Part shown: piece by piece, positions 986 through 35,508 of the stretch
Layout: every line of letters begins with the position of its first letter
Numbering within the stretch: the first letter of the stretch is position 1
Source: Candidatus Woesearchaeota archaeon
GTDB lineage: Archaea > Nanobdellota > Nanobdellia > UBA10117 > JABICX01
Assembly (NCBI GenBank): GCA_964435825.1
Contig: CAYTAB010000003.1
Location: forward strand, 1-38,524
Direction: 5' to 3'
Length of the DNA stretch: 38,524 nucleotides
Notes under the pieces: model-generated
Told to the model about the DNA's origin: nothing
Seen by the model: only the letters and a program-made list of their open reading frames with translations
Databases searched by the model: none
Made by a program: the position numbers and the translations under genes

Positions 986-3900
986 TCAACTAGTTAATTC
1001 CATATAAGCACTTAACCAGTCATTTGAACCAGTGTATTTTTGAAGCTTGCTTGGAATTTTAATCTCATAATCATATACTCCATATTTACCTGCCTTGCTG
1101 TCATTGATCACTGTTATGAAAACTAAATCTTGGGTTCCATTGTACTGTGATCCGCCATCACTTGAATCCCAAAGCAAACCAGTTACAAAACTGCTCGTAT
1201 TTGTTGATTTTATAAACGGAACTTGAGTAATAGTTTTGTCATAAACAATAAAAGTTCCTAAATTATCTGGAACATCATCATCATTTGAATCAAATAATCT
1301 CTTTATTGAATCATTAAATGCAGTCATATTCATTGTAGAATCTGCTTCTTCAAAATCATTTGTATCATTTAATGGTTCAAGTTGAGTAAAGTCAATACTT
1401 GAATCATAGTCTGCAAAATAAAGATTTCCCTGCATTATTGTTGGAAGCCATGTTGAGAAGTTAGCTGAATTGCTGTTTGCAAGAATAATTGTTCCATTAG
1501 TATATCCATAAAAGACACCCCATCCTGAAACTGAATAATTAGTATAATTCACATTATTTGTTTCATCATTTTCTGTAAATTCGTGCTTGTCATCTGCATA
1601 TGCTGCAAATTGGTAGGTTCCGGAGCTGGAAACCCAAGAAAAGTTAACTTGAGCTCCAGAACCACCTGCAATACTAACGTTTCTATATTCAGTTTGACTT
1701 AATTCCCAAGCTGAGTCATTCCAGTAAGAAACGTTGAGCATAATAGAAACATTTACAGCATCTGCTGCCTCAGAATTATTTATATGAAAAATAACCAAAA
1801 TATTCTGACCTTCTTCAGGAGTTGAATCATTAAATTCAATTTCAGAAACATAAAAATCATACAAAGTAACTCCAAATTTTCTTGATTCAGTTGCATTTAA
1901 ATTTCCAACACTATCATTGCAGTAGTAAGAGACATTATACTGACCTGCAGTTAGACTATCGTTTGTGTGACTGAACTCTTTAGCAGAATCTTTGTTCATT
2001 GTAATATTTGTTATTCCATTATCTAAACTATACAAACAAGTATCTCCTGCTTCATTTAAAGAAACATTAAAAGTTATGCTTTGAGAGGTGTAATTAACTC
2101 CTTCTGAAGAAGGAACATTAATCACAATCTCAGGTGGAGTTGTATCTATTGTAAATGTATAATTAAAGGTATCAAAAGCGCAGTTTGAAGCTTTGTCACA
2201 AGAATAACAATTCCAGTTATATGTTCCGTCATCAAAATTGTCTACATTGAAAGTATAGTTATAATTGTTATAGTGGCTATAATTTGTTAAATTAATATGC
2301 CATCCATTATTCCAATCACCATACAAACTTACATTTTCAACATAGCTATCATCACTTACTGAACAATTAAAGATTAATGAAGTTGAAGTTGAATTATAAT
2401 AATCCTCAGGTATAATCAAATCAATATTTGGAGATGCAATATCATACCAAACAACCAATTGAATAAAATCTGTTGCAATAACTGTTGAAGTTGAAGAAGC
2501 TGCAGAATAAGTTTTAGCAAGAACTTTTACATATTTAGAATCATTAATCCAATCTTCAAGATTCGCAGTTACTCCAATATATTCAGTTTGTTCACTATTA
2601 TCTGTTGTATATGTTGCAAACTCAACCCACTCCTTGCTTGAATCATTATATAAATAAAGAATAAATCCATCTGTTCCAGAATCAACATCTCCATATCCAG
2701 CCCAAGTTACATTAAGCAATGTAACAGTCTCCTCTGATTCATTAATTTTAAATTCAAATCTAGTAAATGCATAGTTTCCTGAACCTGCAGAGTAATCCTG
2801 ATAAACATTATTATCTGAAGTCAAATCTGAATAAGGGTCATCAATCTCTGTCCAAGTTGTGTTAGTTGTTCCCTCATATGCAGAATTATATGTAGTATCT
2901 GAAAAATCATAAACTGAAATTCCTGAACCAACTGCTAATGTTGCTTGCCCAAAATTAGATTCAGAAGCATTGTAATAAAGAGTAGAATTACTGCTAATAT
3001 TACAGCTTATTGTAAACATTCCAGATTCAGCAGGATTAAAGCTATATTGTGCATAGCCGTCTGAACCTGTTAAATTGCTTCCCATATACACAGAATCATT
3101 GTAAAATAAAACCCAATAATCTGAAACATCCTCTTGCGTAATGTTGTCTTCAACTCTACAATACATTGTAGTTTTATCACCTTCTCCAACACTTGTTGGG
3201 TTTAAATATGCTTCATCAATTTTTGCCCAAGAATAAATTGTAATGTTTCTGTATTCAGATTCATTTGATAAAACAGAAGAATAGTTCAGTGAATAATAAT
3301 ATGAAAACAAAGAATGATTTCCAAGAGAACCAGTTGCATTTAACAGCCAATAAGAAGAACAAACAGTTCCGTTTTTTAACTCAGATAAACAAGAGTCATC
3401 TGAATCATTTCGCGGATTTTCAGATAAAGTATAAAATGGAGTTGCAGAAGTTGAAGTGCTAATTATTCCATTTTCAGAGCTGTTTAATTGTGCAGAAACA
3501 TCACCACACTCACCACCAATACATTGAACCTGAGTTGTAAAATTAAAAACATTGTATTTCTCAACATACTTAACAGAATCTGGATAAATAAGCGTAACAT
3601 TCAACCAGCCCCAGTCAACAAACCAGTTTGTGCTATTCTGTGAACTAATGCTTCTATTATCATAGCAAACTGCAGTTAAATTAAATGTTCCAGAATCATT
3701 TATTATTAAATCATCATTATCAAAAACCCACCAACCAGCTGATTCTGTAAAAGAAGTTCCTGAAATCAATTGTTTTGAATCTTCTATGTTCTCAAGAATA
3801 AAAGTTGCATTTGAAATTGAAAAACTTCCTGCAGTGCAATTAATTCTCATTCTTGTTATTTTTTCTGCCCAATCAAGTTCACTACATTCTTTCCATGAAG

Positions 3901-6900
3901 AAGATTCTTCACATTGAATCTGACCTGAACTTAATGGAGAATAACTTGTAATAGTTAATTTTCTCTGAATAGAAGTATTTCCAGATAAATGACCTATATA
4001 TTGAACAGGTGTAACAAATGCATAAAAACTTCTTTCATCACTTGGATTGCCACTTGAATTTAAAATCCATGGAACTGAACAATTAAGTCCTCCAGCCATA
4101 TTTGTTAAGCAACTAATATCTGTCTTGTTTTGTGGATTAGAATCTAAAGAATAAAATGGAGTTGTAGAAGTTGAAGTGCTAACCAGACCATCTTCACTTG
4201 TATTTAATGTAGCATTAACATCACCGCACTCACCAACAAGACAGCTTACTCGCGCAACAATTTGAGAAGTAAATCCCTGAACAACTGTTGCATTTACTTG
4301 AGGAAATGAAATATTAATTGTTAAAGTACCCCATGGATAATTCCAAGTCTCACTTGTTTCATTATTACCAAAAGGACCATAACAACTTGCACTTATATTC
4401 ATCTGACCTGAATCCCAAAGACTTAAATCATAGTTATTATAAATATACCATCCATTTGTTTTTGTTTTTACAGTGCCATTGAATAATGTCACATAATCTG
4501 GATTATTAAATAAAAATATTGAAGCATTATCTGAAAGACCTGTGCAGTTAACTCTTACTCTAGTCAAACCCCCGCCATATGTAATTGTGGTGCAGTTTTT
4601 CCAAGTTCCGTCATTCTCACATTCTATTTTTGAAACAAAAGCAGGTGCATTAGAGGAAATGTTTTCAGAATTAGAATCTGTAGTTGAGCCTGCTTCATAA
4701 ATTGAGAATGGTGTGACCTTACACTGCCACTCTTCCTGATAAACAGTTTCTTTTGAAACAAAAACATTGTTTTTCTGTCTCAAATATAATTCCCGAACCT
4801 GATCAAAGCTTAGTGCTCGGTCATACCATCTCAGAGAATCAATTGTTCCATTAAAATTACTATCACCATCATCTTCCTCTCCAATATAAATTTCCTGGCT
4901 GTCATTGCTCACAATTCCAGCATCATAATCATCATTATAATTATCTGCAGCCCCATTTACAAAAACAGTCACATTATCTGAAGATAAATAAACAACAACA
5001 ATATGATACCAAGTATCTGGCAACCATTGGTTAGTGTTTGTCTGAACCTCTCCACTATAGGTAGATACACTTATTCTTCCACTATCTGCACTTAATTGTC
5101 TTATTGCAAAATCATTTGGTTTGTCAATATAATAATAATCTACTGTATCTGTTGAATTAACTTCATGTCTCAGTTTAAACCAAAATTCAATTGAAAAATC
5201 ATCTGTAGTATTAATGTTTGAATTAATATACAATCTATCACTATCTCCATTAAACTCAAAAGCTCCAGTTCCATTTAATCCACCTGTAGCATTCCATTCA
5301 ACACCTGTTGGAGTAGCATCATTTCCATATCCTGAATAATCATTTATTGCATCAGCTTCTCCACCTTCAAAATCCATATTAAGCATGTTCATTGGAATAC
5401 TATCAACAAACCAAGCAATTGTTGCAGAAGTAGTTCCGCCACTTGGATGATATTCGCAGCTCAAATTATCATACTCATAATATCCATCAGAAGTTGCATT
5501 TAAAAACACAGAGCTAAATGTTGGAGTCTGCTTTACAAAAATTAAATCAGATACTATATATGGACTGCCTTTTTCATAAAACAAATCTGAAGAATCATTT
5601 ATTTCACAGGAAATATTCAATGAACCACCTGGAGTTGCAGTAATTGTTCTTACTGCCCAGCCACTTGAATTTGTTAAGTTTGTTCCAAGTAATTCTGAAT
5701 TTTTATAAAAAGAAACATTATATCTAAAAATTGAATGATTATCAAACTCATCTCTTATATGACAGCTATAAGTAAACAGGTCATTTAATGAAACATTTGT
5801 ATTATTAAATCCAGATTCATTAATTTCTGAAGAGCTGTAAATGTAAAAATATTTAGAAGGACTAGACTCTGCCCAATTATCTGATGTGTCATTTACTAAA
5901 ATTGCACTAACATTAATCATACCTAAATTGCTAAATTCTGTTAAATCAGATGTATTTAATGTATAATTTGCAGAAGCAGTTGTTCCAGACAATGGTCCAA
6001 TTGAATAATTTAATTGCGTTCCAGTTCCATTATGAGACAAATAAGCATAATCTAATCCAATATTATCTGTCCATTCTGAATATGCTAAAATCTGCCCACC
6101 CCTTTTTATTTGAGCACCATTTGAAACATTAATATTCCAAGTAACAAGTTCTGGAGCAACAATATCTCCATCTAAAATAAAAGTATCATATCCCAAAGGA
6201 GACCAGTAAGAACCTAATGTTGAATAAGCTGTAACAGAATAATTTCCATGTGAACTTCCTGAAGAATTCCAATATAAAGAAAATTCACCATCATAATCTG
6301 TAGTGTTTGAACCTACAAAAGAAATAAATTCATGCTCAGTTGAGATATCTCTTTGCTCTGTTCCATTTGTATAAAAAAAGATTTGGTCAACCTGTGAAGT
6401 GCATACTCTATTTGAGTTTGCAGAAGCAAGAGTATGCTCCCATTTAATTGTATGGCTTCCTTCAGTTAAATAATAAGAATCAAAATTCCAGCCAGTAGAA
6501 GTTTGCGTATCTATTTGCTGGCCATCAACAAGAAACTCAAATGTGCATCCTGTTGTTGAAGTTCTTCCCCAATAAAAAGACAGATATCCTCCTTTTGAAA
6601 GTGTAACTGATTTTGAAAAACTTGCTTTAGTTTCATCACAATGTGTAAAAAAGTTTCCATCGCATGTAAGAGTTGACGAAGTGCTGTAAGATGTTGAATC
6701 TGCTCCACCTGAAGCAGCATCCCAGTCTCCTGAAAGAGGGTCTCCATTTGTTGTTCTATACCAATATGTTGTATTAAAGTTATTGTCTTCAAAATCATCA
6801 TACACAGGTGTTGTAGAATATTTGCTGCTATAATCTGGAGCATCTGAAGTGTTTTTATAGTATATTGCAATTGTATTGTTTCCTGTTAATAATCTATTTA

Positions 6901-28705: not shown

Positions 28706-29989
28706 TCAATGATTTTGTTTTATAGTTCTAAAACCGCAATATTTCCACAAACAAGAAGGAATTTTAACACTTCCGTCTTTTTGCTGATGGTTTTCTAATA
28801 TCGCAGGAATTGCTCTTGAAGTTGCAACCATTGTATTATTTAAAATATGTACATATTTTTTTTCACCATTTTCAAGATAGCGGATATTTGCATTTACTGA
28901 CTGATAACTTTTACAATTACTGCATGAAGTAACCTCTCGATATGCACCTTTTTTATTGTTCTGTCCAGGAAACCATGCTTCAATATCATATTGTAAACTC
29001 TGTTTATCACCAATATCTGCAGAACAAATTGCAACAACTCTAAAAGGAATTCCCAAATCCTTAAAAAACTGCTCACTAATTTTTTGTAGTTTATTAAAAA
29101 GCTTATCTGAATCTTCTTGTCTTGAAAAAACAACTTGCTCTGCTTTATTAAACTGATGCATTCTAATTGTGCCTTTATCATCTTTTCCATGCGTGCCAGC
29201 TTCTTTTCTAAAACAAGGGCTGATTCCTCCATAAAATAAAGGTAATTTAGACACATCTAGCACTTCATTAAAATGCAAAGCAACTAATGGAAGCTCAGAA
29301 GTTCCTATTAAATACAAATCTTCACCCTCAATCTTATAAATTGTATCTTCAAACTCTTGTAAATTAATTCCTGCACTAATTGCTTTTTTATTTAACATTA
29401 GTGGAGGCCAGATTATGCTAAAACCATTTTTCACAAGAGTTTCAATAGCATACATCTGCAATGCCCAATCAAGAATCGCTGCCTCATTTTTAAAATAAAC
29501 AAACCTTGAACCTGAAATTTTTGCAGCACTATCAAAATCAAATAAATCTAAACTTAATCCAAGTTCAATATGGTCTTTGTGCTTAAATGAAAATTTCGGC
29601 TTTTTTCCAACAAACCGAAGTATTTTATTATCTTCTTCACTTTTACCAAAAGGAACTCTATTATCAAGAATATTTCCAACTTTGCTTCTAAAAACATCTC
29701 TTTCTCTTAAATAAAAATCTGATTTTTTTTGCAGGTTATTGATTTTAGCTGTTAAAACGCGCATTTGTTTTATCTGAGCATCAGCATTTTGCTTTAATTT
29801 TCTCTTTTTTGAAATTTCCACATTAATTAAATTTCTTTTTGCGCGCAGTTTTTCAACCTCTTTCAAAGAATTGCGCCACTTATTATCATATTCAATAACT
29901 TTTTTAACATTATTAAGTTTCTTTCCACGTTTTTTTTCAGAAGCTTCAACATCTCTAAGATGCTCTCTAAAATATTTTATTTCTAGCAT
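28706..29989 (-). CDS. serS: Seryl-tRNA synthetase (bacterial-type class II)
   Basis: N-terminal coiled-coil arm (MLEIKYFREHL...). Class II motifs FRKEAG, TSELPL and NNTMVATSRAIPAILENHQ. Confidence 0.93.
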   Translation of the reverse strand: MLEIKYFREHLRDVEASEKKRGKKLNNVKKVIEYDNKWRNSLKEVEKLRAKRNLINVEISKKRKLKQNADAQIKQMRVLTAKINNLQKKSDFYLRERDVFRSKVGNILDNRVPFGKSEEDNKILRFVGKKPKFSFKHKDHIELGLSLDLFDFDSAAKISGSRFVYFKNEAAILDWALQMYAIETLVKNGFSIIWPPLMLNKKAISAGINLQEFEDTIYKIEGEDLYLIGTSELPLVALHFNEVLDVSKLPLFYGGISPCFRKEAGTHGKDDKGTIRMHQFNKAEQVVFSRQEDSDKLFNKLQKISEQFFKDLGIPFRVVAICSADIGDKQSLQYDIEAWFPGQNNKKGAYREVTSCSNCKSYQSVNANIRYLENGEKKYVHILNNTMVATSRAIPAILENHQQKDGSVKIPSCLWKYCGFRTIKQNH

Positions 29990-31101: not shown

Positions 31102-31254
31102 CTACAAACCTCTTTTCCACAAATCCTTGTTTTCTTCAGCCATAATCAATAGATAAGCTGCTTGTTCAAAAAAAGCATTAATTGAATGATATCTTCCTTC
31201 TTTAACAAATTTCTCAATTTTTTTAATCTTTTCATCAGAAATTTCAATGTTCAT
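31102..31254 (-). CDS. Ribbon-helix-helix (CopG/Arc-like) micro-protein, 50 aa
   Basis: Too short to appear in the supplied track (shortest listed ORF is 60 aa). Manual translation: MNIEISDEKIKKIEKFVKEGRYHSINAFFEQAAYLLIMAEENKDLWKRGL*. The beta-strand + ..L.+LV..G.Y.S...F...A pattern is RHH-like. It lies 34 nt downstream of the DHH gene on the same strand. Confidence 0.45.
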   Translation of the reverse strand: MNIEISDEKIKKIEKFVKEGRYHSINAFFEQAAYLLIMAEENKDLWKRGL

Positions 31255-31288: not shown

Positions 31289-32716
31289 CTATAAAGTATA
31301 TTTAGTCAAAGGTTCACTCCATAAATCTCCTTTAAAATACATTCTTTCCAAAAGATTATTTTTCTTTGAAAGACTTTCTTCAATCTTTAATAATTGCTTC
31401 TTGCTTATTACACCACCACCAACTTTGCCTCGGCCCTTGATATTTGCAGAATTATCTGAAAGAATTTGTTTTAACTCTTCAGCAGAATATCCTCTAAAAC
31501 TAATCTTATATGAACCATTTTCAAGATCTTCAGCAACAAACATTGTTGAAGAATCTAATGCTCTTTCTAAATTAGAGTAAAAAGTATCATGATTATGAAC
31601 ATACTTAGATGCTTTATGCATAATTTTCATTGGCTCAGAATAACAAGTTAAATAATTTGCAACAACACCTGTGGCATGTTGAAAGCTCTGCTTATCCATT
31701 ACAATAAAATAATGACCTGGTCCCTGTATCAACGAAGAGTTATGAATAATATTTTGAACCTTATATACAATATCTCTATTAACATAAGATTCATTTAAAA
31801 GTTCAAAATTAGGGTCTGCAAGAGCCTTTCCAACTCCGAGAATTTTCAATCCAAGATTATCTAATTCTTTAAAAAACTCACTAAAATGAACTTTGCCAGA
31901 TTTAACATCTCTAATTCGAAGCAATGCATAAAGAGAAAGTTCTTTCATCATTTCAAACTTCTCTGGTGAATACAAATCTGCATCTTCACCAACTGCTAAT
32001 TTTTTTTGATACATGTGTGAACAAAATTTAACAGCACTTGGAACATGGTCTCCAATATGACCTGTAATAGTTAATAACTCCTCAAGATTATAATCTGCAG
32101 AACTCCGTTTTTCACGCTTATTTGGATGAGAATCTGAAAGCTCAACCATCTTTTTTTCAAAATTTAAAGCAATTCCGCGCGCCAAATCTGAAGCTGTTGC
32201 CATAAGTGGTTTATTTCCATTAATATTTAAATCAAATTTAACAAGTTTTGCATCAGCATTTTTGCCAAGCGCAACATCATGATGGTCAACTAGAACATTT
32301 GTATGATATGGAACAGTTATATCAACACTTACAACAAAAGAGCCTTTCTTTGGTTTAGGTGGAGTGTTATAATTATCAATAAAATGAACTTTAATATTAT
32401 CAAAACCTTTTTGTGAAAAATATCTCATTAATTCCTTAGCACCAATTGCTCCATCAGTATCATCATGTGCATAAATTTCAATCAGGCTTTTATTGTGAAT
32501 ATTATAATGATTTAATGCAAGCTCTACTTTTGGAGTAAATTGCTCAAAAACAGAATCTCTGTATTTTGTAGATATATTAAAAACAGGTTTAGGAACTGCG
32601 TTTTGATTATATTCTCTTACAATCTGTTCTAAACGCTTGCGCTTCTTGATTTTATTAGGATCATATTGCTCTTTCCATTTTTCAATAATCCTTTTTTCAA
32701 GTTCAGTTCTACTCAT
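31289..32716 (-). CDS. DHH/DHHA1-family phosphoesterase (divergent RecJ/GAN/Cdc45-like or nanoRNase-like)
   Basis: IYAHDDTDGAIGA (motifs I-II), VLVDHHD (motif III), GHIGDH (motif IV), C-terminal GRGKVGGG (DHHA1 GGG). The track start (32749) is TTG, so I use the ATG at 32716 (MSRTELEKRI). Confidence 0.7.
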   Translation of the reverse strand: MSRTELEKRIIEKWKEQYDPNKIKKRKRLEQIVREYNQNAVPKPVFNISTKYRDSVFEQFTPKVELALNHYNIHNKSLIEIYAHDDTDGAIGAKELMRYFSQKGFDNIKVHFIDNYNTPPKPKKGSFVVSVDITVPYHTNVLVDHHDVALGKNADAKLVKFDLNINGNKPLMATASDLARGIALNFEKKMVELSDSHPNKREKRSSADYNLEELLTITGHIGDHVPSAVKFCSHMYQKKLAVGEDADLYSPEKFEMMKELSLYALLRIRDVKSGKVHFSEFFKELDNLGLKILGVGKALADPNFELLNESYVNRDIVYKVQNIIHNSSLIQGPGHYFIVMDKQSFQHATGVVANYLTCYSEPMKIMHKASKYVHNHDTFYSNLERALDSSTMFVAEDLENGSYKISFRGYSAEELKQILSDNSANIKGRGKVGGGVISKKQLLKIEESLSKKNNLLERMYFKGDLWSEPLTKYTL

Positions 32717-32822
32717 TTTAACAGATATATCACCACTAATTAATAACAAATATTCTCTTTTTTTATTTAAAAACCTTTCGAATTTGTATACTTAAGTAAA
32801 CAGATTAAGTTAAATAATGATT

Positions 32823-32965
32823 AAAAGAATTAGCGACTGCCGAAGCAGTCGCACCTGACCGGAGGTGTGTTTTTCTTTTTAAAGAAATACACAAACCCCC
32901 GCGCCCAAAAGGGCGCTAGGGTGTAGCTGTGCATCAGTCTGGGCACTGATGCTCTTCTCGTACCG
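32823..32965 (-). ncRNA. Unclassified GC-rich structured RNA candidate (five consecutive hairpins plus U-run)
   Basis: 32833-32952 is 66/120 G+C by hand count, against AT-rich flanks. Perfect 8-bp stems at 32931-32952 and 32833-32852, the latter closing a C(UUCG)G tetraloop on the minus strand. A 12-bp GC stem at 32895-32922. T4 run at 32826-32823 on the minus strand. No ORF. Confidence 0.55.
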
Positions 32966-33133
32966 TCACTGTTCTTCGTCAACCAAGACGATTACTTTCT
33001 TACCAATTAATTCCTTTGGTAATGTAATCTTCCCAGAAGAAGCGTTGTTTTTAATAACTTGTCTTGTCAGAATTTGGTCAAAACTAATAGGCTTCAATGC
33101 TACCTTTCCTTTAACTTTTGCATTAACTCCCAT
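32966..33133 (-). CDS. AbrB/SpoVT-like (DUF2080-like) micro-protein, 55 aa
   Basis: MGVNAKVKGKVALKPISFDQILTRQVIKNNASSGKITLPKELIGKKVIVLVDEEQ*. The G+I.LPKE.IGKKV.V motif is typical of swapped-hairpin AbrB-type domains. The track start (33154) is GTG. The ATG at 33133 lies about 30 nt downstream of TTTAAATA (minus strand), consistent with a near-leaderless mRNA. Confidence 0.45.
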   Translation of the reverse strand: MGVNAKVKGKVALKPISFDQILTRQVIKNNASSGKITLPKELIGKKVIVLVDEEQ

Positions 33134-33247: not shown

Positions 33248-35089
33248 TTAATTTATTTTTCTTAAAATTGATTCTTTGCCCTTCCAATCAATTGCTTCTT
33301 TTAATACATCCTTAAGAGTATTAACTGGAATAATTTTAATCTTCTTCTTAAGTTGTGGGCTTAAAATAATATCTCGTTCATTTGCTGCAGGAACAATTAC
33401 TTTTTTCAGACCTGCTTCAATTGCTGCTTCAACTTTTTGAGTTATTCCTCCAACTGGAAGAACAAAACCTCTAACAGATAAACTTCCAGTCATTGCAATA
33501 TCTTGCTGAATCGGCAAACTTTTTAATGCAGAAATAATACATGTAGCAACAGCAATACTTGCACTATCTCCTTCCAAACCTTCATAAGTTTGCAGAAATT
33601 GAACATAAACATCATAATTTTTTATATCTGCATTAAACCATTTTTTAACAATTGCAGAAACATTTGTAACAGCTTCTTTTGCAATTTTTCCAAGACTGCC
33701 TGTTGCAACAATTTTTTGTTCTTTATTTGCCTGTGCAGGAACAATTTCTCCATCAATAGGCAAAACAATTCCTGAGAAATTATTTTTTGAGCCAATAACT
33801 GCTAAACCATTAACTCTGCCAATTTCTTTGCCAGAAGTTCGTATAACCTGATACTCTTTTTTATGTTCAATAACTTTGTCTGCAATTTGTTGTTCTAACC
33901 CTCTGGAAAGTTTCCGCGCATCAATAACATCTTTTGCCCGAACCAACTTCTGTTTTCGCTCCAAAGCTAAATCTCCTGCAGCACGAACTAAACCTCCAAG
34001 ATCTCTCAATCTTAAAGTAAGTTTATTTTTACGCCCAGCCATTCTTTTTGCAAAAAGAATTATCTCCTGAACTGCCTCTTTAGTAAAATGTGGAATTTTT
34101 CCATCTTTTACAACTTCTTGTGCAACAAAAACAGCCAACTTCTCTCTATTTTCTTTATTATCCTCCATTAAATCATTCATATAAATTTCATAGCCATATC
34201 CCTTCAATCTAGACCGCAATGCAGGATGTATTTTTTGAACAGTCTCAACATTTCCTGCAGCAACAAGAACAAAATCACAAGGAACTGGTTTTGTTCTAAC
34301 TAATGCTCCTGCACTTCTATCTGATTGTCCTGTAATTGAAAATTTTTTTTCCTGAATTGCAGTTAACAATTCCTGTTGAGTTTTTGGCTCAAGTGTTGAA
34401 ATCTCATCAATAAATAAAACTCCGCCATTTGCTCTATGAATCATTCCAGCTTCAACTCGCAAATGTGCTGGAGTTGCCAATCCTCCGCTTTGAAAAGGGT
34501 CATGTCTTACATCTCCAAGCAAAGCACCTGCTTTTGCTCCAGTAGCATCAATAAACGGAGCTCTTTTTGAAGAAGAATTATCCACAATCATCTTTGGTTC
34601 AATTACTTTTGCATTTCTATTTCCAATACTTAAAGAAAGAGCAATTATTCCAACAAGAAGCAAACCTCCAATTAAAGAAGCAGCAGCCATTATATCTCCA
34701 TATCTCTCTCTGATTATCCATGGAAAAAGTAATGCAACAAATCCAAAAGCTAAAAAAAGAAACTGTTTATTTCTAAGAAAGGATTTTGCCTTTAATTTAG
34801 CAGAATTAACCAAAGATGTTCCTGCACCTGCAGAAACAACTTTCACATATGGCTGATTTTCATCTTTTTCATTTGGAAAAATCAAAATATCTTTTAACAA
34901 ACTTTTTGGCAATAGTTCTGAAAGTGCCTGCCCAATCATTGACTTTCCAGTTCCAGGAGTGCCGATTAAAAAAACATGTCGTCGCTGTTTCGCAGCTTTT
35001 TTAATTATATCTACTGCTTCATCTTGACCAATAATTTGATCTACAATCCTTTTCTTAACAATAATATCTTTAGTGCTGTTGAATTTCAT
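33248..35089 (-). CDS. lonB: Archaeal membrane-bound Lon protease (LonB)
   Basis: Walker [10 protein letters not shown] membrane hairpin is inserted in the AAA module ([17 protein letters not shown] / [15 protein letters not shown]). Walker B LFIDEI. Protease domain with GDSASIA (Ser) and [10 protein letters not shown] (Lys). Confidence 0.93.
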
Positions 35090-35114: not shown

Positions 35115-35381
35115 CTATTCTTCAGAATCAGAATAGTTCATATTAGCGTTTTCAATAATCATTATTTCACCAATTGCTCGAACAAGTTGATGTGGAACTT
35201 GAACGCCTTTTGCACTAGGTAATGATTTTCTTAAGAGAGATTTTTGATTAGTAGTTCTTATTCTCCACCCAGAAATTTTATTTTGAGAAAGAATTGCATC
35301 TTCAACCTCTCCAAAATATTGTCCATCAATTGTATATACGCTAACTCCGCTGACTTCGCTAATATTTTTCATATTTAACAT
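35115..35381 (-). CDS. PRC-barrel domain protein
   Basis: [32 protein letters not shown] is a PRC-barrel pattern. There is an alternative ATG at 35372. It lies 25 nt upstream of lonB on the same strand. Confidence 0.6.
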
Positions 35382-35508
35382 TAAGCTTCACCCTAAAAAT
35401 GATTACTCACTAAAGAATAAAAAGATTTCTCTTGAGAAAAGGACATTTATAATTACAAACTATCAAAACCAAATAATATAAAAACTCTTGCATTTAAAAA
35501 ACTTTAAG

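Follow-up and report, generated by a model that had tools for sequence, protein, structure and literature searches.

A GC-rich cluster of five hairpins lies just behind a small DUF2080 gene in a 38,524-nt stretch of DNA from a Candidatus Woesearchaeota archaeon (hereafter the window). It is most probably a local feature of a transcript end and not a conserved new RNA. We tentatively assign it, with somewhat less than even confidence, to the 3' UTR of the DUF2080 transcript, as a terminator, insulator or stabiliser. The structure itself is real and statistically striking. We infer from the sequence that it is transcribed from the minus strand within the DUF2080 mRNA, and that its role would be one of termination or stabilisation.

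A GC-rich island of five serial hairpins

By count, 66 of the 120 nucleotides at 32833-32952 are G or C (55%), compared with 27.7% in the 300-nt flanks and 30.3% in the whole window, which bears out the GC-rich island of the original prediction, with ~28–30% around it. Scanning in 80-nt windows revealed it to be the sole such island, with a G+C content above 52% reached nowhere else in the 38.5 kb. Folding of 161 nt of the minus strand gave −66.7 kcal/mol (z = −6.1), with none of 200 dinucleotide shuffles folding as well, and the 141-nt core gave −64.0 kcal/mol (z = −6.5). In sliding 140-nt folds across the window the island is the most stable, at −65.6 kcal/mol; the mean is −21.8 (sd 5.7), so that the island stands 7.7 sd out, and the runner-up reaches −45.7 kcal/mol. 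This runner-up (1581-1760, minus strand, 42% G+C) falls within an apparent coding sequence, in a large repetitive ORF region.

Partition-function folding, a check suggested together with the original prediction, gave a strong fold on each strand, and all five of the hairpins proposed for the minus strand were recovered, as follows.

32833-32952, minus strand: hairpin cluster H1–H5, 55% G+C, from folding
32931-32952, minus strand: H1, GCAUCAGU-GCCCAG-ACUGAUGC, 8 perfect pairs, dG −11.5, pair probability >0.98
32895-32922, minus strand: H2, ACCCU-A-GCGCCC-UUUU-GGGCGC-G-GGGGU, 11 pairs, dG −21.5
32867-32892, minus strand: H3, A/U-rich, GUGU-A-UUUCUU-UAAA-AAGAAA-A-ACAC, dG −6.4
32853-32866, minus strand: H4, ACCU-CCGGUC-AGGU, 4 pairs, dG −1.8, pair probability ~0.5–0.6, marginal
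32833-32852, minus strand: H5, GCGACUGC-UUCG-GCAGUCGC, 8 perfect pairs, cUUCGg tetraloop, dG −14.3
32821-32832, minus strand: U-rich tail UAAUUCUUUUAA, containing a U4 tract (32826-32823) and a candidate signal for archaeal termination

Pair probabilities exceed 0.93 in H1, upper H2, H3 and H5. H2 contains one U.G pair among its 11 pairs and a 1×1 A.G mismatch, with a probability above 0.98 in its upper stem and of ~0.7 in its lower stem. H1, H2, H3 and H5 are robust, and H4 and the closing helix are marginal. The latter, an AGAAG/UUCUU helix that had been proposed to join the 5' and 3' ends into a closed junction, is indeed seen in the ensemble, but with a probability of only 0.45–0.57. The resulting architecture is a series of five hairpins whose sequences are unrelated to one another, and the ensemble contains no competing alternative folds of the riboswitch or attenuator type.

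The last hairpin resembles an intrinsic terminator. H5 (8 bp, of which 6 are G-C, with a loop of 4) and the TAATTCTTTT T-run were matched by a terminator consensus scan, which returned four sites in a 1-kb region against 0.5 expected, H5 + UAAUUCUUUU among them. As a pattern match, H5 and the U-run form a predicted intrinsic-terminator-like 3' end, in which the hairpin is followed by one U4 tract only.

The preference for the minus strand is weak. It had been argued from the cUUCGg tetraloop, the trailing U-run and wobble pairing, and each of these does point to the minus strand, but the wobble amounts to just one U.G pair, which together with the loop bonus and the 3' U-tract is all that favours this strand over a plus-strand fold that is nearly as good (−62.0 kcal/mol, z = −5.3). 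The accompanying statement that the island has no ORF is not strictly true, as an uninterrupted 50-codon frame with a TTG start (32830-32982, minus strand) spans it and overlaps the end of the DUF2080 gene; the 50-aa product of this frame has no Pfam match.

The DUF2080 gene stops at a TGA (32968-32966), while three relatives stop at a TAA one or two codons later. Read-through of the TGA would extend the protein by 29 codons, to a TAA inside H3. TGA read-through, or a SECIS element, was considered and rejected, since the relatives close the ORF at about the same place with TAA, and from this comparison the TGA is judged to be an ordinary stop.

Gene neighbourhood

The genes around the cluster all lie on the minus strand, in the transcription order LonB, DUF2080, hairpin cluster, promoter-like motif, 475-aa ORF and 50-aa ORF, with RtcA on the plus strand beyond the 50-aa ORF.

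33248-35089, minus strand: LonB protease
32966-33133, minus strand: DUF2080 gene, 55 aa, with its TGA stop 13 nt upstream of H1
32764-32780, minus strand: BRE/TATA-like motif CGAAAGG-TTTTTAAATA, from sequence reading, between the cluster and the DHH-like ORF
31289-32716, minus strand: 475-aa DHH-like gene, with HDDTDGAIGA, VDHHD and a C-terminal GGG (DHH/DHHA1-like) recognised by eye
31102-31254, minus strand: 50-aa ORF, RHH-like, 62–68% identical to 68-aa ORFs of relatives, forming the right edge of the insert described below

The gene preceding the cluster had been labelled an AbrB-like micro-ORF. Both Pfam (PF09853, E = 2e-5) and NCBIfam (NF033496, E = 4e-6) instead call its product a DUF2080 protein. 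A TATA-like TTTTAAATA lies upstream of this gene, at ~33168. Domains of this family have been described as antitoxin modules that pair with a variety of toxins (PMC10440598), and have also been reported as part of CalpT (bioRxiv 10.1101/2024.05.08.593097). The adjacent Lon protein assigns the organism to the DPANN archaea. Its best genome match is a Candidatus Pacearchaeota MAG, with 78% identity, and MAGs of Woesearchaeota and Nanoarchaeota reach at most 68%. PADLOC gave no matches among the neighbouring proteins.

The 475-aa protein carries the motifs by which it had been named a DHH gene, but HMM support does not go beyond its best profile match, the PHROG profile 'DHH phosphoesterase', at E = 0.16. 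Searches against Pfam, NCBIfam, PADLOC and PDB sequences gave no match, and the only homologue found among 5.8 billion clustered proteins (word-indexed search) and 1.84 billion representatives (HMMER) was one 99%-identical copy; viral contigs contained no match. The single-sequence AlphaFold model, with a pLDDT of 40, was too poor for a fold search. On these searches the ORF is a genuine orphan, inserted between two small genes that are both conserved.

The anatomy of the locus fits the 3' end of the DUF2080 transcript, because H1 begins 13 nt past the stop, H5 is followed by the U4 tract, and no convincing strong BRE/TATA element was found ahead of H1, in what is the end of the DUF2080 coding region. 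The promoter-like motif of the next gene (32780-32764), which closely resembles the one upstream of DUF2080, follows the cluster and stands 55 nt before the ATG of the DHH-like ORF; its position after the hairpins was counted in favour of a 3'-end role. Among the options left open by the original prediction, a 3' UTR or terminator is thus the best anatomical fit, with a terminator-like H5, and the original interpretation is partly supported.

The same motif bears on another of those options, in which the cluster serves the DHH-like gene as a 5' leader or cis-regulator. Such a leader would be made when transcription of DUF2080 reads through, or from a TATA-like TTTAAAAA that can be read in the loop region of H3, ~25–30 nt upstream of H5, which would place H5 at the 5' end of the mRNA. 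The cluster does share its strand and the insert with the DHH-like gene, but the better BRE/TATA-like motif sits between the cluster and the ORF, and a terminator-like hairpin and U-tract intervene; moreover, alternative folds are lacking and no riboswitch family in Rfam was matched. A leader function is accordingly disfavoured, and we consider it improbable.

Comparison with related loci

Searching with the DUF2080 protein returned five proteins, whose contigs lack the element; its relatives in the database number only four others, with 54–85% identity (81–85% for the nearest). The placement of DUF2080 beside Lon is limited to a small clade, being absent at the other 79 DPANN Lon loci. In L001/L012 (a Pacearchaeota MAG) and L011, DUF2080 precedes an unrelated spacer of 83 nt and then a 68-aa ORF, and in L002–L004 it precedes 36 nt, an acyltransferase gene and the same 68-aa ORF. 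The element is absent from all of these orthologous loci (L001/L012, L002–L004 and L011). Compared with them, the window contains a 1.7-kb lineage-specific insert in the spacer between the DUF2080 and RHH-like genes, comprising the hairpin cluster at its left edge, the promoter-like motif and the DHH-like gene.

Alignment of the cluster with the spacers of the relatives revealed no similarity beyond a short ACGG/ATGG...AGAGC motif after the stop. The L001 (4172-4254) and L011 (412-482) spacers occupy the same site after DUF2080, share this motif and also contain hairpins, but these are two small, weak ones (−18 to −22 kcal/mol; z = −2.7 and −2.3, respectively) compared with four strong ones in the window (−64 kcal/mol), and no gene is inserted next to them. 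No structure was found after DUF2080 in L002. The structured spacers of L001 and L011 hint at a recurring need for structure at this site.

Two independently assembled contigs, L010 (ENA) and L092 (JGI), are identical to the window across the element, which is therefore not an assembly artefact. Between the window and L010 there are 5 differences over 3204 positions, none of them inside the element. Since the copies are identical across the element, they offer no variation from which compensatory change could be judged.

The cluster lies exactly at the left boundary of the segment that is absent in relatives, and could be a by-product of the insertion or a DNA-level element. Palindromic DNA of foreign origin or newly formed at the junction would then serve, for example, as a recombination site, a protein-binding site or a REP/MITE-like palindrome, with no role as RNA. 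Consistent with this, the stems are near-perfect palindromes that fold on both strands, and R1, a covariance model of the five-hairpin structure (141 positions, 46 pairs), matches the reverse strand of the element itself at 23 bits; the lack of conservation also agrees with such an origin. Opposing it, no direct or inverted repeats were found to bound the 1.7-kb segment, no integrase or transposase gene is adjacent to the cluster, and of the many copies expected for a REP, BIME or MITE family, no second one of any hairpin was found in the 38.5-kb window (allowing up to 3 mismatches) or in 756 kb of related loci. In addition, the inserted 475-aa ORF is host-like at ~30% G+C and the high G+C is restricted to the hairpins, as expected under a selected structure. 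An origin of this kind is unlikely, though it retains appreciable weight.

Search for copies elsewhere

A search with R1 over 756 kb of related DPANN loci detected no copy of the element, nor did nhmmer and blastn over 80 DPANN Lon loci from GTDB genomes. A loop-anchored three-part pattern run on metagenome contigs returned the identical L092 and five chance matches that were rejected by R1, and the exact patterns of H1, H2 and H5 were absent from viral contigs. blastn gave no match to the element in plasmid collections and two chance-level matches of 21–29 nt in phage collections (E = 0.5); DUF2080 likewise had no match in plasmids. The proposal of a conserved structured-RNA family did not hold up, with homologous loci lacking the element and no diverged copy found, and the comparison with related archaeal genomes that had been suggested for it yielded only the identical copies in L010 and L092. 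On these searches, the element is an orphan, limited to a single strain-level lineage.

In AT-rich archaeal genomes, islands of high G+C usually prove to be structured RNAs, and the cluster could accordingly represent a free-standing sRNA of ~130–140 nt, the first member of a very narrow new family, either made under a promoter of its own or released by cleavage of the DUF2080 transcript. Its action would be in trans or through protein binding, with the DHH-like phosphoesterase as a possible partner. The extremely stable fold and the arrival together with the DHH-like gene agree with this, as does the identity of the other strong islands in related loci, which are 5S, SSU or LSU rRNA or intron-containing tRNAs. 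We nonetheless regard a free-standing sRNA as doubtful, given that no convincing BRE/TATA element precedes H1 and no homologue was found wherever it was searched for. The fold itself also argues against it, with near-perfect Watson–Crick stems, tetraloops of the kind that confer stability, no conserved-looking internal loops, and a weak H4 and closing helix.

A more specific form of this idea is that a new or acquired structured sRNA works with the co-inserted DHH/DHHA1-like phosphoesterase, as a substrate mimic, guide, scaffold or regulator. We give such a partnership only a slim chance. The antitoxin-type DUF2080 protein might then complete a three-part module with the RNA and the DHH-like protein, and if the partnership were true, it would constitute a new RNA–protein system confined to one DPANN lineage.

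Known RNA classes

The description of the element as unclassified was upheld by Infernal/Rfam and ARAGORN, neither of which gave a match. Rfam 15 at gathering scores had no match in the whole window, and in E-value mode (E ≤ 10) the region 32700-33100 gave chance-level scores, the best being 13–19 bits against thresholds of 40–208. ARAGORN found no tRNA with default settings, and when run at a relaxed score with introns as long as 200 nt allowed, it found nothing at 32833-32952 while recovering a control tRNA-Val (L061).

Individual classes were also considered and rejected. For tRNA, reading of the sequence revealed neither a 7-bp GC-rich acceptor pairing nor a GTTCRAATC T-loop, with the caveat that tRNAs with introns at non-canonical positions (e.g. 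L058) are missed by both Rfam and ARAGORN. For 5S rRNA, there was no model match, and the architecture is one of five serial hairpins, not a three-way junction; the same Rfam model scored 95 bits on L086 and L088. A box C/D sRNA was rejected for lack of a terminal RUGAUGA/CUGA pair, the nearest motif on both strands being a CUGAUGC inside the H1 stem, and no Rfam snoRNA match exceeded 13 bits. An ACA follows H1, as in an H/ACA sRNA, yet H1 is an unbroken 8-bp stem without a pocket. The CUGAUGC does not form a hammerhead core, as on sequence reading it lacks the essential A9 and an adjoining stem II. A type III toxin–antitoxin RNA of the ToxI type would require tandem repeats of a unit of ~36 nt, which are not seen, the hairpins being unrelated and no direct repeat having both copies inside the element; the only direct repeats that touch 32821-32965 are 11–13 nt long, with partners 680–1390 nt away inside the DHH-like ORF.

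The other strong G+C islands of the related loci served as a control. Among these, Rfam identified one tRNA as well as 5S, SSU and LSU rRNA, but further islands ~1 kb upstream of Lon in other Woesearchaeota (L058 2826-2957, L061 2751-2865, L053 3025-3129 and L085 8571-8658) are intron-containing tRNAs, missed both by Rfam, at E ≤ 1 as well, and by ARAGORN with default settings. They include tRNA-Val(UAC) carrying either one or two introns, of which one lies in the T-loop region. The L061 island is a tRNA-Val with a 40-nt intron, and that of L058 has two introns by eye. A negative Rfam result is therefore insufficient in this lineage, and for RNA annotation in DPANN archaea generally, 'no hit' from Rfam or default ARAGORN needs positive controls.

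These misses lend some plausibility to the view that the cluster is a diverged or interrupted known RNA, such as a multi-intron or split tRNA, a 5S rRNA, or a C/D or H/ACA RNA. The intron-aware ARAGORN run, however, recovers the control and finds nothing in the cluster, no acceptor, T-loop, C/D boxes or H/ACA pocket could be recognised, and Rfam does detect 5S, SSU and LSU rRNA in related loci, making a missed known RNA very improbable.

Elsewhere in the window, relaxed ARAGORN (introns allowed, 90% score) gave tRNA-like matches at 4614-4707, 29491-29688 and 35279-35469, none on a G+C island; two of the three carry 'introns' of ~108 nt, the last mostly overlaps a PRC-barrel gene, and all three are probably false positives.

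Proposed role and comparison with known systems

In the favoured reading, as a 3'-UTR structure of DUF2080, the DUF2080 transcript would run through the cluster and terminate in the U-tract behind H5. The GC-rich hairpins, above all the cUUCGg-capped H5, would help RNA polymerase to stop, may block 3'→5' exonucleases, and would separate the DUF2080 transcript from the DHH-like gene, which would then use its own promoter. We infer the exonuclease barrier, or alternatively an insulator that shields the new gene from read-through, from the position and stability of the structure.

Termination in archaea is not known to need hairpins, in line with a signal made up of a U-tract and aCPSF1, and the cluster would thus go beyond a minimal terminator. 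Its five helices and its 55% G+C far exceed what a terminator needs, which counts against a 3'-end role, as do the single U4 tract, the structureless L002, the near-equal fold of the plus strand, and the absence of variation showing selection. The element is best filed as a lineage-specific structure, rich in G+C and placed at the 3' end of a transcript, or as an orphan archaeal ncRNA.

Several known systems resemble the cluster in part. The closest archaeal likeness is to the Hgc RNAs, reportedly obtained by Klein, Misulovin and Eddy in 2002 from G+C screens of Methanocaldococcus and Pyrococcus, and said to be expressed and in some cases conserved between species. Like these, the cluster is a sharp G+C island in an AT-rich archaeon, strongly folded, intergenic and outside the classical classes. 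It differs from them in that it has no Rfam match, including to any Hgc family in Rfam, and is known from sequence, with identical copies only.

REP/BIME clusters in 3' UTRs, which stabilise upstream mRNAs, are similar in that several hairpins occur together, as is typical of BIMEs; however, they are multi-copy elements with a consensus, whereas every hairpin here is unique and single-copy in the sequence searched. Bacterial intrinsic terminators share with the cluster the perfect GC-rich stem-loops after a stop codon, the last followed by a U-run, ahead of the next promoter. The host here is archaeal, however, and in archaea termination proceeds via U-tracts and aCPSF1, with U4 tracts and aCPSF1 together setting its efficiency (PMC8716108).

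If functional, the cluster would join a very short list of non-coding elements known from DPANN archaea, and would represent 3'-end formation or insulation by hairpins in a domain whose termination is ascribed to U-tracts and aCPSF1. Its arrival together with an orphan gene, in a hot-spot spacer whose cargo differs in each relative, would make it a case study of how a new gene is insulated. As a single-lineage element, its general significance is limited.

The gene after DUF2080 varies, being the DHH-like orphan in the window, an acyltransferase gene in L002 and none in L001 and L011. In L005–L009, DUF2080 is followed by a 151-aa ORF that has no Pfam match and is hydrophobic by eye. By analogy, the variable downstream gene is compatible with the promiscuous antitoxin–toxin pairing reported for DUF2080 (PMC10440598).

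Other structures occur on the upstream side of DUF2080 in the relatives. The intergenic segment between Lon and DUF2080 in L001 (3630-3800, equivalent to ~5840-6010 in L012) is GC-richer, without an Rfam match, and contains a directly repeated hairpin, AGTCCTTCTAGCCAAGGGAC. In the two closest relatives, L001 (3840-4000) and L011 (~150-240), a stretch of ~14 nt at the start of the DUF2080 gene, ATGGGnnTnAATGC, is tandemly duplicated two or three times, a duplication that is absent from the window. Each extra copy of ATGGGnnTnAATGC is followed by an AT-rich palindrome, CCCTTTCTTTAGAAAAGAAAG, and by TTGCCCAAAGAAACAAATTAGA, and the result is a mini-ORF, MGINALPFL*. From their sequence, these repeats look like a leader peptide, an attenuator or a small insertion with target duplication.
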